Virus record (IMG/VR): IMGVR_UViG_2531839468_000018
Location: 1 to 23,016 of that record
Strand: one strand, 5' to 3'
From: a virus
Taxonomy: Duplodnaviria > Heunggongvirae > Uroviricota > Caudoviricetes
Length of the DNA stretch: 23,016 nt
In this document: in pieces, positions 9,035-22,479 of the stretch
Numbering within the stretch: the first letter of the stretch is position 1
Layout of the letters: each line of letters starts with the position of its first letter
The notes under the pieces: generated by a model
Databases searched by the model: none
Told to the model about the DNA's origin: nothing
What the model saw: the letters and a program-made list of their open reading frames with translations, nothing else
Program-made: the position numbers and the translations under genes

Positions 9035-9080
9035 ATTCGTAATGCGAAGGTCGTAGGTTCGACTCCTATTATCGGCACCA
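9035..9080 (+). other. 3' 46 bp of a tRNA-Thr (thrW-like, anticodon CGT) gene: anticodon loop to CCA end; att-site remnant / island boundary
   Basis: ATTCGTAATGCGAAGGTCGTAGGTTCGACTCCTATTATCGGCACCA has the T-arm GGTTCGA..TCC, acceptor stem and CCA; the 5' half of the tRNA is absent; identity to thrW is from memory. Confidence 0.7.
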
Positions 9081-9685
9081 TCAAGAAAATCAATAACTTA
9101 GCTTAACTTCTCTAAGAAATTGTATCTTCTGTTATCACTTACAAACGCCTATACGTTGTTATGGGCTTTGGTAGTTTAACACGTATGGGCGAGTAGTTCC
9201 CAGGCTCAACCTCGTAACAAGTTCCTTTGAAGCTGGAAGACGTGCCACCGTCTCTAAACCTTCTACCAAAACTCTTAGCAAGATGTTCCACACCTGGCGC
9301 GGTGTCCAATGATGCTACACGTCGTGAGACGTTGCAGAGGATAAACAGGCTAAATGATGGGAAGAGTTTTAAGTGCAATAGTGGATCAAAGCCCACCTCT
9401 TCAAAACCTAACTTGATCGGGAAAGAATCAAGCTCTAGCACGGTTTCGTCCACCGGAGTACAACGGGTGCCTGATAAGAGAAGAACTGCTAAGACTTCAT
9501 AGCTTTTGTGAAAAAGCCCTTTTTAGTGGATACGCCTACGGCGCTTATTTTTTGGTATAACCATCAAAGGCGCTTTATGGCTCCTATTGTCTTGAAAATG
9601 TATCTTTACTTGTATTGTGTTTTATGCGTAGTCTCCCTGTGTAGTATGTAACTTGTTAATTTTCATATGAATACAGAGGCACACG

Positions 9686-9844
9686 ATGAAAAACATTGCA
9701 GCTATCAAACGTAATAACCGCAAGATTCACGCTCGTAAGTTCCTGTCTACGCCAGAAGGAAAAGCCTGGCTAGAGCGTAAACAGAGAGAGAACGAAGAAA
9801 GAAAACTCCTTAGTGAGTTGAAATGGCTTAGAGAGGATTTCTGA
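9686..9844 (+). CDS. Small basic protein (52 aa), hypothetical
   Basis: ATG 9686 preceded by GAGG; MKNIAAIKRNNRKIHARKFLSTPEGKAWLERKQRENEERKLLSELKWLREDF; below the ORF-track size cut-off. Confidence 0.3.
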   Translation: MKNIAAIKRNNRKIHARKFLSTPEGKAWLERKQRENEERKLLSELKWLREDF

Positions 9845-10007
9845 AAATCTCCAGAACGCAACAGGACGCATTCTAACGCTGTTTTCATTGCTTGGTATAG
9901 GGATGTATAGGTGATGTGTGTTTAATGCGTCTGTGCGCTTGTTTTGTGCCTTATTTTGCATTTTCATAATGCAGAAGAGAACACGGAAAACCTTAAAATT
10001 AATTATT

Positions 10008-10050
10008 GGGGTATTTAAGGCTATTTTCAGGTTATTTAAGGGTATTAAAC
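10008..10050. repeat. AT-rich ~10-bp periodic direct repeats (GGTATTTAAGG-like)
   Basis: GGGTATTTAAGG CTATTTTCAGG TTATTTAAGG GTATTAAAC. Confidence 0.5.
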
Positions 10051-10123
10051 TTGATTTAATTGATTAAAATATAAACAGATAGTTCTGTATCTTATTGATT
10101 TATAAGGTTATTTTTAAATAAAG

Positions 10124-10187
10124 GTAAATAAAAATAAATAGCCATAAATAGCCATAAATAGCTATAAATACATCTAAATACCTATAT
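10124..10187. repeat. Six tandem 10-bp units (ATAAATAGCC-like)
   Basis: ..GGTAAATAAA AATAAATAGCC ATAAATAGCC ATAAATAGCT ATAAATACAT CTAAATACCT; helical-repeat periodicity. Confidence 0.6.
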
Positions 10188-20210: not shown

Positions 20211-20245
20211 TTCCCGCCATAACATTACAAGGAAAAATTATTATT

Positions 20246-20959
20246 ATGGCGACCGCCGGGATTTTAACCATACGTGCAGCAAATACTCCAGAACAACACG
20301 TTCAGGCTGTTTACAAAGCAGAACAAGATATAAACTCTACAAAAAACGAAAATAGCAAAGCTAATACAACAAAAGGCGAAAATGGATTTGCTATTGTTAC
20401 CAGTGGCTTGGCATCTTCTGGCAATGACGTTTATGAAAATTATATGGCACTGGCCTTTGATAGTGTTGACGATGTGAACGTGAGACGTTCGGCAGATGTT
20501 ACAAGCTACCCCGTAGAAAATGGTGCTACTGTGTCTGATCACGTTCAAATTAAAAACAATAAATTTTCTCTTAAAGGAAGGATCACTGAAACACCGATTA
20601 AAAGCGATCCTGGCTTGTTAAAGAGTGCAGGGGTGAACGGGAACAGAAGATCATTAGCTATCGACTACCTGAATCAGATTATGGACAGTAGACAGCCTTT
20701 TCTTCTTGTTACAGAAAATAAAACTTTTGAGAACGTTGTTTTAACAGGCATCGAATACACAGAAGAGGCAAGCGAATCCCTGGTATTTGATCTTAGCTTT
20801 GAGCAAATAAGATTAGTTTCTTATGGCACTGTAAACACTGTAGCTATCAAAACACAGCCATCTAAGAACATCGGGGCTAATATGAAAAAACGTGTTAACA
20901 CTGAAAAATCAAGTAGTGAAGGTGAAGACACTATTACTCCTGCCTTTAAACAGGAATAG
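20246..20959 (+). CDS. Hypothetical protein (237 aa)
   Basis: ATG start after AAGGA; convergent with integrase; hairpin GAGGCT..AGCCTC in the 80-bp gap. Confidence 0.55.
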   Translation: MATAGILTIRAANTPEQHVQAVYKAEQDINSTKNENSKANTTKGENGFAIVTSGLASSGNDVYENYMALAFDSVDDVNVRRSADVTSYPVENGATVSDHVQIKNNKFSLKGRITETPIKSDPGLLKSAGVNGNRRSLAIDYLNQIMDSRQPFLLVTENKTFENVVLTGIEYTEEASESLVFDLSFEQIRLVSYGTVNTVAIKTQPSKNIGANMKKRVNTEKSSSEGEDTITPAFKQE

Positions 20960-21040
20960 CCGTAAACGCCTCTAAAACGCTCTGTAACGATGTAATTATA
21001 AAAGAGGCTACCAATCTATGTTGAAGCCTCCTTATTGCGT

Positions 21041-22375
21041 CTATGGCGTTGTTTTACGCCTTAAATTTGATTTTTTATTGATTGATAAGCCTTTCTCTAT
21101 TTCAGGGTAGCGTAGAAGCTCAATATAGTTTTTAAGCTCTACTGGAGAAGCTGCATTCTTGCTATATGTGCGGAATGTCTCTGTATTGCCGCGTGTATGG
21201 CCCAGGAGAAGGGCGATCCTGTCTTCTGGAATTTGATTTCGATCAAGAAGCTGTGCTACTCCGTGTCTCAGAGAATGAAACACCTTCCTTTCTGTTCCCT
21301 TTTCCCCTAAAGCCTTTCGTTTAGCTCTTGTAAATCTCTGCGTGTGCCACGTGGAACGCTTGCCGTCTGCACGTTCTGTAATGCTGGCGTGATAGAACAA
21401 AAAGCCATTATGAGGCTTTTCACGCAGCGACAACACCAACGGAGTGATAAGGCTATGCACAGGCACAACACGCGCCGCAGCTTTCGTTTTTCCCTGTGTG
21501 ATTTCAAAACACAGCACACCTTCGATCTCTTTCACATCGTCTATTGTGAGACTTGCTATCTCATTGATCCGCATACCTGTATATAAACCGATAAGACACA
21601 AAGCTATCATTTCTTTGTTTTCTGCTGAATTACCGGAAAATACTTGCAACACCTGCAATAGCTCTTTGTTAGAAAATGCCTCATAGCTCTCTCTACTTTG
21701 TGCCACATCAAGCCTATGCCCTCGCCAGGGGGAGAGCGCCCTTTCTGGCGCATCGTGGTAACGTGATGAAGCTAACTCCCATAGCTGGGCCATTGGGCTG
21801 ATATAATTTGCAATTGATTGTTGTGAAAGGGTTTTTTGCATGTGTTCAATCCAGCCTGTAACAGTGGTGCGGCTTACATCTTGCAATGCAATATCAGGCT
21901 TTTTACGGTAGGAGAGAAACATCTCTACCGCTTTTCTTGCCTTAGCTAAAGTGGCTGGCTTCTTCTTCGTGCTGTTAATTGTCAGGTAGATTTCAAGAAT
22001 TTTAAGCAATGACGGACACGAAGACGCTGTATCTTGCATTCTGGTAGCTGTTTTGGCGTATTTAGCCTTACTGCGTAACAGTTCCAGCGTGTTCTCTATT
22101 GTGCTGTTTACAGGGGCGACACTCTCCCGTAGACAATGGTATTCATCTGCAATCTGATCACGCTTTCTACGTGCAACACGAAGACTACTTGTGTGTAGAC
22201 TTCTGACAAACGTCCTTTTTCCTTCAAAAAAGGGCTGCATATACACAGGCAGCGTGATCCTTAAATAGTAGTTACCGTAAGAATCACAGATTATGTATTG
22301 ATTAGGCTTGTATCTCATAAACTCCCCGGCTAAAGTGTCGGAGCGTTTGTAATGTGAAAATTGATTGTGACGCAT
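21041..22375 (-). CDS. int: Tyrosine site-specific recombinase (phage-type integrase)
   Basis: C-terminal ..VFHSLRHGVAQLL..LLGHTRGNTETFRTYSK.. (R-H-R-Y family) and N-terminal ..NYYLRITLP..FEGKRTFVRSLHTS.. arm-binding-like region; maximal ORF reaches 22405 (TTG); ATG candidates at 22375 and 22318 (the latter after GGGGAG). Confidence 0.8.
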   Translation of the reverse strand: MRHNQFSHYKRSDTLAGEFMRYKPNQYIICDSYGNYYLRITLPVYMQPFFEGKRTFVRSLHTSSLRVARRKRDQIADEYHCLRESVAPVNSTIENTLELLRSKAKYAKTATRMQDTASSCPSLLKILEIYLTINSTKKKPATLAKARKAVEMFLSYRKKPDIALQDVSRTTVTGWIEHMQKTLSQQSIANYISPMAQLWELASSRYHDAPERALSPWRGHRLDVAQSRESYEAFSNKELLQVLQVFSGNSAENKEMIALCLIGLYTGMRINEIASLTIDDVKEIEGVLCFEITQGKTKAAARVVPVHSLITPLVLSLREKPHNGFLFYHASITERADGKRSTWHTQRFTRAKRKALGEKGTERKVFHSLRHGVAQLLDRNQIPEDRIALLLGHTRGNTETFRTYSKNAASPVELKNYIELLRYPEIEKGLSINKKSNLRRKTTP

Positions 22376-22460
22376 AGAAAATGATGATTTTTCTATAAGA
22401 TTCAATCAATTAGTAATGGTCGTAGGTGATGGCATTAACACGAGATTAATCGAGTGTTTT

Positions 22461-22479
22461 ACTCCTATTATCGGCACCA
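22461..22479 (+). repeat. 19-bp direct repeat of the tRNA 3' end (ACTCCTATTATCGGCACCA); att core at the integrase-proximal boundary
   Basis: Identical to 9062-9080; preceded at 22418-22427 by GGTCGTAGGT, which matches the tRNA T-arm lead, with a 33-bp unrelated segment between. Confidence 0.65.

Follow-up and report, generated by a model that had tools for sequence, protein, structure and literature searches.

The 23,016-nt stretch of viral DNA analyzed here, referred to as the window (positions 1 to 23,016 of IMG/VR record IMGVR_UViG_2531839468_000018), very probably covers part of a series of integrative elements lined up in tandem at the hotspot formed by thrW, a tRNA-Thr gene of Escherichia coli. 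Its two partial copies of thrW, at 9035-9080 and 22461-22480, are the attachment (att) scars of two distinct mobile elements. The first, element A, is a lambdoid prophage represented in the window by its right end, element B lies between the two copies, and the blocks of thrW sequence belonging to A and B are nested. The boundaries of A and B, their independent presence and absence across strains, and their occurrence in both orders are observed in sequence. A sequence-only reading of this DNA had proposed that two elements integrated one after the other into the same tRNA-Thr gene, and its interpretation of the attachment sites is partly supported.

Attachment scars of two elements at thrW

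Features that define the array are as follows (attP, attL and attR are the attachment sites of the element and of its left and right junctions).

9035-9080, plus strand: 3' part of thrW, 46 nt, tRNA-Thr(CGU); attR core of A, with the last 19 nt also serving as attL of B
9062-9081, plus strand: identity block of B, left copy, 20 nt, ACTCCTATTATCGGCACCAT; present once in the A-only strain 210221272, where chromosomal flank follows
9082-22460, plus strand: body of element B; repeat period of 13,399 bp, about 12.1 kb without its insertion sequence (IS), with precise presence or absence relative to A-only and empty-site genomes
22413-22427, plus strand: vestige of thrW in the attP arm of B, GTAATG-GTCGTAGGT, assessed by a shuffle test
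22428-22460, plus strand: 33-nt insert in the tRNA-like arm, holding an imperfect 22-nt palindrome, AACACGAGATTAATCGAGTGTT
22461-22480, plus strand: identity block of B, right copy (attR of B), 20 nt, after which the chromosomal flank begins
22481-23016, plus strand: chromosomal flank of thrW with a remnant of yagP (LysR type) on the minus strand; matches K-12 and the A-only strain at 99% identity

In strain MB06234, where thrW is annotated as a tRNA-Thr gene adjoining proA, nt 31-76 of the gene match the left copy (ATTCGTAATGCGAAGGTCGTAGGTTCGACTCCTATTATCGGCACCA) exactly; they begin at the final base of the 5' anticodon stem, include the CGT anticodon, and end with CCA. The left copy is also letter for letter the 46-base att core of SfI, which is common to SfII, SfV, SfX, and P22 (PMC3636060). 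The core sequence expected of A, ATTCGTAATGCG...GGCACCA, is thus present at 9035-9080, and the derivation of the left copy from thrW, as originally suggested, is confirmed by both the gene and the published core. In the right copy, the 19-mer ACTCCTATTATCGGCACCA occupies 22461-22479, and a T at both 9081 and 22480 extends the repeat to 20 nt. The direct repeat of B is at each end the 3' end of thrW plus this T (9062-9081 and 22461-22480). Use of a short 3' core by the right-hand element, another element of the sequence-only reading, therefore stands, with an identity block of 20 nt in place of the proposed 19 bp. Upstream of the block, GGTCGTAGGT is located at 22418-22427 and is preceded by GTAATG at 22413-22418, with one G overlapping. 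Aligned to the corresponding GTAATG[CGAAG]GTCGTAGGT of thrW, this segment is missing 5 nt (CGAAG).

Chance similarity of the copies to thrW is ruled out by shuffle tests. Allowing three mismatches, the 19-mer occurs exactly twice in the window and was recovered in none of 100 shuffles. When the 100 nt upstream of the right copy were compared with the 5' 57 nt of thrW, 51 of 20,000 shuffles gave an exact match of at least 10 nt. Both copies are fragments, as had been described from the letters alone in details that the sequence and the alignment to thrW fully bear out: ARAGORN predicts no tRNA gene anywhere in the window, and an Rfam scan (E-value threshold) covering both copies yielded no match to a tRNA or other family. 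In the window, attL of B is the 46-nt fragment only, with no rebuilt intact tRNA, and an intact tRNA is rebuilt at attL in the B-only genomes MB06234, EC10, and PE144, as well as in GF153.

The same locus was surveyed in 5,426 complete E. coli genomes. A synthetic empty site, joining thrW to position 22480 onward, is contiguous in 948 of the 5,426 at up to 100% identity. B is present by itself, directly after an intact thrW, in MB06234, EC10, and PE144; the copy in MB06234 is 99.97% identical to that of the window apart from the IS. A is present by itself in strain 210221272, where the 46-nt copy is followed by chromosomal flank and the alignments to the window overlap by exactly 20 nt. The joint thrW-A-46 nt-B is found in 21 genomes (ES5 and 20 others). 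In ES5, the order is an intact thrW, an integrase gene, a 45-kb prophage with cargo, the 46-nt copy with a 280-nt arm, B, and the 20-nt copy, and the prophage integrase is 99.5% identical to SfIV Int. The reverse joint, consisting of the B arm, the 20-mer, and the integrase side of A, is found in six genomes. One of the arrays is triple: in GF153 (locus 2728-31600), thrW-B is followed by a deleted SfIV-type prophage, which is an A remnant, and by a P4-like element that carries a retron-type reverse transcriptase, psu, and delta. P4-like elements also follow the 46-nt copy in some other strains. These empty, A-only, B-only, A-B, and B-A states uphold the claim that two different integrative elements use one tRNA gene. 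thrW is a stacking site for several elements, and A and B are independent. K-12, which had been put forward as an empty reference, is unsuitable for that purpose, as CP4-6 occupies thrW there.

These states most likely reflect a simple mode of recombination. A, with an integrase of the P22/SfIV type, would recombine with thrW via the 46-nt block that starts in the anticodon loop. B, with an unrelated DUF6538-type integrase, would recombine within the 20-nt block, from the T loop (the ACT of TTCGACT) to one base past CCA. The B copy at 9062-9081 is nested in the 46-nt block of A, and that at 22461-22480 is joined on its left to the attP arm of B. Because its block is inside that of A, B could enter either the intact gene or the attR of A. 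The integrase of A, conversely, should need the longer block including the anticodon-loop part, which attR of B lacks, and A is therefore predicted to enter only the intact gene. For the same reason, the order thrW-B-A would imply that A arrived first and B second; thrW-A-B fits either order. The proposal of successive integration thus holds insofar as two independent elements are involved, while the thrW-A-B arrangement is silent on which of them came first. There is experimental precedent for entry beside a resident, as SfI integrates at attL of a resident SfX at thrW (PMC3306764).

Strain PE144 bears on the point of exchange. Its attR of B reads ...TATCG-CACCA and its attL reads ...TATCGGCACCA, a difference of 1 nt. 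If the deletion lay in the target, strand exchange took place on the 5' side of this position, probably within ACTCCTATTATCG. A distal copy with the same 1-nt deletion, TATCG-CACCA, abuts an island with a P4-like integrase in PE144 (16080-16140) and in Citrobacter; in PE144, this island is the vat island, located after the proximal B (thrW-B-vat).

The truncated left end of the probable array

To the left of the 46-nt copy, the window comprises three segments and the smaller features within them.

7329-9034, plus strand: right end of prophage A, with a cargo open reading frame (ORF) at 7678-8643 and the attP arm at about 8756-9034; 100% identical to A-only strains
4633-7328, plus strand: ISCro1 (IS66 family), a recombination joint without target duplication, flanked by TGAAATCC and GAATGATT
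1-4632, plus strand: right end of a lambdoid prophage, located at dusA in other strains, with tail fiber fragments, NleG, IS2, a tfa remnant, DinI, and an integrase stub
4402-4632, minus strand: C-terminal integrase stub, dusA type; the only integrase stub left of A
1617-2947: IS2, with the target duplication ATACG
4092-4340, minus strand: DinI-like gene, downstream of an IS009 match

Only 1.7 kb of A (7329-9034) is in the window, and its integrase gene is absent. In other strains, the stretch is preceded by lambdoid tail genes, EcoRII restriction-modification genes, and the same 321-aa ORF, and it closes with the 46-nt copy. The phage arm of about 280 nt to the left of the core (8756-9034) is also found in ES5; phage phi458 and the attP-proximal region of lambdoid phages match it at about 88-90% identity. 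A P22/Sf-type integrase beside thrW, missing from the window, is found in ES5, at locus L025, and in GF153. The 321-aa ORF (7678-8643) is the last gene before attR and has no match in Pfam, PHROG, or PADLOC. Its position, beside EcoRII restriction-modification genes in other strains, is typical of a defense or moron gene, and ES5 has a different gene at this place.

ISCro1 fuses the dusA-type integrase stub to the last 1.7 kb of A. It does so without an 8-bp target duplication, unlike IS2 and the IS3-family IS of the window, which have proper ones. A has probably been cut to 1.7 kb by ISCro1-mediated recombination with a dusA-type prophage. The joint between the integrase stub, ISCro1, and A is in none of the 5,426 genomes and is absent from the 24 largest contigs that carry the 321-aa ORF. 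The exact 58-aa integrase stub matched no record, and none of the complete E. coli genomes covers at least 80% of the window. In the gene order of K-12, about 640 kb, including dnaB, separates the dusA and thrW loci, which both have the orientation of the window. Because of this distance and the position of dnaB, a plain deletion is not viable as the origin of the joint. Possible origins are the entry of an excised dusA-prophage circle into A via IS copies, a multistep rearrangement, or an assembly chimera. Given this joint, an intact thrW just beyond the window cannot be assumed.

Whether an intact A and thrW are directly beyond the left edge, in an undisturbed array, is the alternative that fares best, and we consider it somewhat improbable. 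The 21 genomes with thrW-A-46 nt-B have this very order, and entry of an excised dusA-prophage circle via IS copies would also keep thrW upstream in cis, at a greater distance. Against an undisturbed array, nothing beyond 7329-9034 is A, and the sequence at 1-4632 matches the integrase end of a prophage that, with its integrase intact, abuts dusA in strains Z1323HEC0108 and OkiPb01684. Between the two is an ISCro1 lacking the expected duplication, in a joint seen nowhere in the census. That the left half is an assembly chimera across this multicopy 2.7-kb IS is unlikely. Such a repeat is present at up to 35 places per genome, and the joint is of a deletion type between loci that are distant in K-12 and separated by dnaB, which would favor misassembly. 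However, the sequence itself shows no sign of error, and IS-mediated rearrangements are common in IS-rich E. coli.

Several points weigh against the interpretation of the window as part of a thrW array. It includes neither an intact thrW nor an integrase of A, and we infer the array in this genome from its relatives. The ISCro1 joint leaves linkage to thrW unproven. The argument from PE144 takes the 1-nt deletion to have been in the target already, and the present-day mobility of B is deduced from population polymorphism only. Despite these points, a tandem array with nested blocks is the reading that we favor.

The left segment has further features. An NleG-family type III effector gene (700-1389) is part of the prophage cargo. 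A neighboring 232-aa gene of unknown family (1603-3637) is cut after its fifth codon by IS2. The Rfam family IS009 (RF02111, 214 bits) is matched over its full length at 3735-3933, in the remnant of a tail-fiber-assembly gene.

The split arm and gene content of element B

The right copy looks interrupted because the arm of B is a degenerate 3' half of thrW, split by an old insert. The asymmetry between the copies had been taken as a record of which arms derive from attP and which from the chromosome. This is correct in that the sequence to the left of the right-hand block is the attP arm of B; the interruption, however, is no record of this locus. By comparison of sequences, the vestigial tRNA segments of the arm represent real homology with thrW, and the interruption is old and carried by the element, without a record of events at the present site. 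The interrupted arm is identical in four other E. coli copies of B, save for one substitution in ES5, and the same arm is present even in B variants with genes that are only 70-89% identical. In a Citrobacter freundii relative with a 56% identical integrase, a homologous insert of about 34 nt separates TGCGAAGGTCGTAG from ACTCCTATTATC-GCACCA. In this relative TGCGAAGGTCGTAG occupies the same place as the thrW vestige of B, and 2 of 20,000 shuffles produced an exact match of at least 13 nt. Over the 34 nt up to the identity block (the insert plus one base), 23 positions are identical to those of this relative in a gapless alignment. Since the arm is common to E. coli copies of B and the Citrobacter relative, it is not a damaged tRNA.

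These same comparisons make it very unlikely that the right copy began as a longer duplicate of the tRNA and was damaged locally by a 33-bp insertion and a 5-bp deletion. The flanks GTAATG and GTCGTAGGT are genuine thrW sequence, as such a history would predict, yet the interrupted arm recurs in every B examined and the insert has a homolog in Citrobacter. The interruption moves with the element and is far older than this integration.

Relatives at a second tRNA gene have a similar arrangement. Those at leuX in E. coli, Klebsiella pneumoniae, and Enterobacter (integrases 57-65% identical) have the 3' half of leuX as their arm, and in all three a palindromic insert of about 31 nt interrupts it in the anticodon region. 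One member in K. variicola has an unsplit copy of leuX. In this family of DUF6538-type integrases, the element-borne arm is thus the 3' half of thrW or leuX, split by an imperfect palindrome of 31-34 nt. Given its conservation across genera within one integrase family, the split tRNA-like arm may be functional. A scan of the 33-nt insert for promoters and terminators found nothing above chance.

The genes and other features identified in B are listed below.

10362-11671, minus strand: IS3-family IS, 1,310 bp, with a 3-bp target duplication (ACT), inverted repeats, and an ALIL pseudoknot (RF01497)
12499-12606, plus strand: five 22-bp iterons, GGTAGGTCACTGTGAGCTAGGG, in tandem in an ORF-poor part of B
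14261-14950, plus strand: helix-turn-helix (HTH) protein resembling phage replication initiators (PF13730, phrog_270), 1.7 kb past the iterons
17049-18077, plus strand: major capsid protein of the Phage_cap_E family, a distant relative of phi92 gp124
18381-20210, plus strand: tape-measure-like protein, 609 aa, homolog of phi92 gp134 (phrog_16051, E = 2.7e-53; PDB 21vq_V, E = 1e-37)
20246-20959, plus strand: Dit-like tail tube initiator, homolog of phi92 gp135 (PF21821; PDB 21vq_N, E = 3e-79)
21041-22318, minus strand: tyrosine integrase of B, 425 aa, with DUF6538, SAM-like, and catalytic domains (PF00589, PF13102, PF20172, phrog_1)

The integrase gene is beside attR, 142 nt from the identity block. 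In its catalytic domain, the protein is 24% identical both to IntF of K-12 (over 162 aa) and to the integrase of A. Pfam and PHROG matches for the 14 ORFs of B are confined to the HTH/Rep-like, capsid, tape-measure-like, Dit-like, and integrase proteins, and the same scans of these ORFs found no terminase, portal, or protease. PADLOC returned no defense match for the ORFs of unknown function in B or for the 321-aa cargo ORF. The structural homologs lie within 16668-20959, and gene order in B mirrors two blocks of the structural module of phage JohannJBalmer. The Dit-like protein is 61% identical to the tube initiator of JohannJBalmer, and the first 42 aa of the tape-measure homolog are 71% identical to the tape measure protein of that phage. 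The iterons are a probable origin of replication of B.

Two candidate assignments were rejected. That B is what remains of a known temperate coliphage is ruled out by a search with its capsid protein among 50,697 phage records, which found none above 25% identity, with matches to Pseudomonas phages. A head decoration protein was considered for the 120-aa ORF that precedes the capsid gene. This ORF has no significant BLAST or profile match to the decoration protein of JohannJBalmer (1.6% probability), with similarity limited to a C-terminal ...FTS end, and its AlphaFold model (pLDDT, the predicted local distance difference test, of 56) was too poor for a fold search.

Three further observations concern the DNA of B. 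The IS3-family IS is a simple insertion that is absent from B of MB06234. Excluding this IS, the region 9082-11983 consists of 1.6 kb next to the tRNA, where no Rfam family matches and no ORF exceeds 52 aa; B variants with genes that are only 70-79% identical agree at 97-98% over this region. In the gene at 15755-16117, an exact 21-bp tandem duplication (15944-15983) repeats the peptide VEMLCKR.

B is widespread. Its coding part (13800-22480, 8.7 kb) is at least 80% present in 270 of the 5,426 genomes, and related elements are present in 720 (∼13%). A scan of genome contigs with the B integrase found one near-identical locus. Relatives were identified via protein searches and contig look-ups. 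Members of the family are located at thrW or leuX in E. coli, E. albertii, Citrobacter, Klebsiella, Enterobacter, Kluyvera, and Leclercia, and synteny is kept in relatives from several genera.

We tentatively suggest that B and its relatives are an undescribed family of satellites, or otherwise phage-hijacking elements, of large lytic myoviruses of the Stephanstirmvirinae (the group of phi92, JohannJBalmer, and phAPEC8). On this suggestion, the equipment of the family would consist of a capsid protein of its own, a tape measure and tube initiator matching those of the helper, a Rep protein with iterons, and a DUF6538-type integrase with an attP arm that is the 3' half of a tRNA split by a conserved palindromic insert. 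Dependence of B on lytic phi92-like phages as helpers would be a reasonable expectation from its gene content. Among the papers searched, none linked satellites to the phi92-like group of phages.

Comparison with known systems

Textbook knowledge includes integration hotspots at tRNA genes, partial tRNA copies as boundaries of islands, and tandem arrays at thrW. Both the tandem occupation of this gene and the 46-nt core have been described before, and the att site of B is of a familiar kind. The attachment-site finding is therefore of little weight by itself, and one tandem case has been reproduced experimentally. The nested blocks of 46 and 20 nt nevertheless provide a simple rule of entry that helps to read CP4-6 or thrW islands as stacks of elements.

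The closest likeness is to the SfI/SfX tandem (PMC3306764), in which an att copy separates two prophages arranged head to tail downstream of proA, and the incoming phage used attL (the rebuilt tRNA) of the resident. SfI and SfX share the same 46-nt core and have related integrases, whereas the integrases of A and B are unrelated and their blocks, at 46 and 20 nt, are nested. The core of P22 and the Sf phages (PMC3636060) is identical to 9035-9080 and the ES5 integrase is nearly that of SfIV, but the prophage of the window is reduced to 1.7 kb and lacks its integrase.

CP4-6 of K-12 has the same site, the same right flank (yagP, paoD), and an integrase at the end away from the tRNA. It differs from B in three respects: the identity of IntF is only 24%, DNA similarity is confined to tRNA copies and flank, and the tRNA copy at its attR, about 49 nt or longer, is uninterrupted and has a different arm. 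The integrase identity and lack of DNA similarity rule out B as IntF/CP4-6. The idea that the window holds a single composite island with the 46-nt copy as an internal relic, modeled on K-12, where the annotation treats thrW to intF as a single cryptic prophage (CP4-6) and the integrase, as in B, is at the rightmost end, is hardly credible, given that A and B each occur alone with precise boundaries and in both orders, that the B integrase is not IntF, and that attR of CP4-6 has at least 49 uninterrupted nt and another arm.

Pathogenicity islands also occupy thrW. The VAT island is next to thrW in avian pathogenic E. coli (APEC; Parreira and Gyles 2003, as cited in PMC7545054). A variant of B in PE144 is located between thrW and the vat gene, and the window is without vat. 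PAI-thrW of APEC O1 and UM146 is listed at 20 kb and 41% G+C (PMC7545054). Its size is about right for B plus vat.

Element B has the larger potential value. It is carried by about 5% of complete E. coli genomes, with relatives in about 13%, and if B is a satellite of lytic phi92-like phages, it could influence the efficacy of these phages, which are considered for therapy against E. coli and Klebsiella. Markers of known satellites were sought among the 14 ORFs of B with Pfam and PHROG: psu, delta, sid, and alpha for P4-like elements; alpA, pri-rep, and terS for phage-inducible chromosomal islands (PICIs); a head module of portal, protease, and terS for capsid-forming PICIs (cfPICIs); and genes of PICI-like elements (PLEs). 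None was found. To our knowledge, a capsid, a tape measure, and a tube initiator are not a described gene set of satellites. In general plan, however, B resembles PLEs, P4, and capsid-forming PICIs: it is compact and combines an integrase, a replication module, and a few virion homologs without a complete virion set. PLE of Vibrio cholerae parasitizes the lytic phage ICP1, and the probable helper group of B is likewise lytic.

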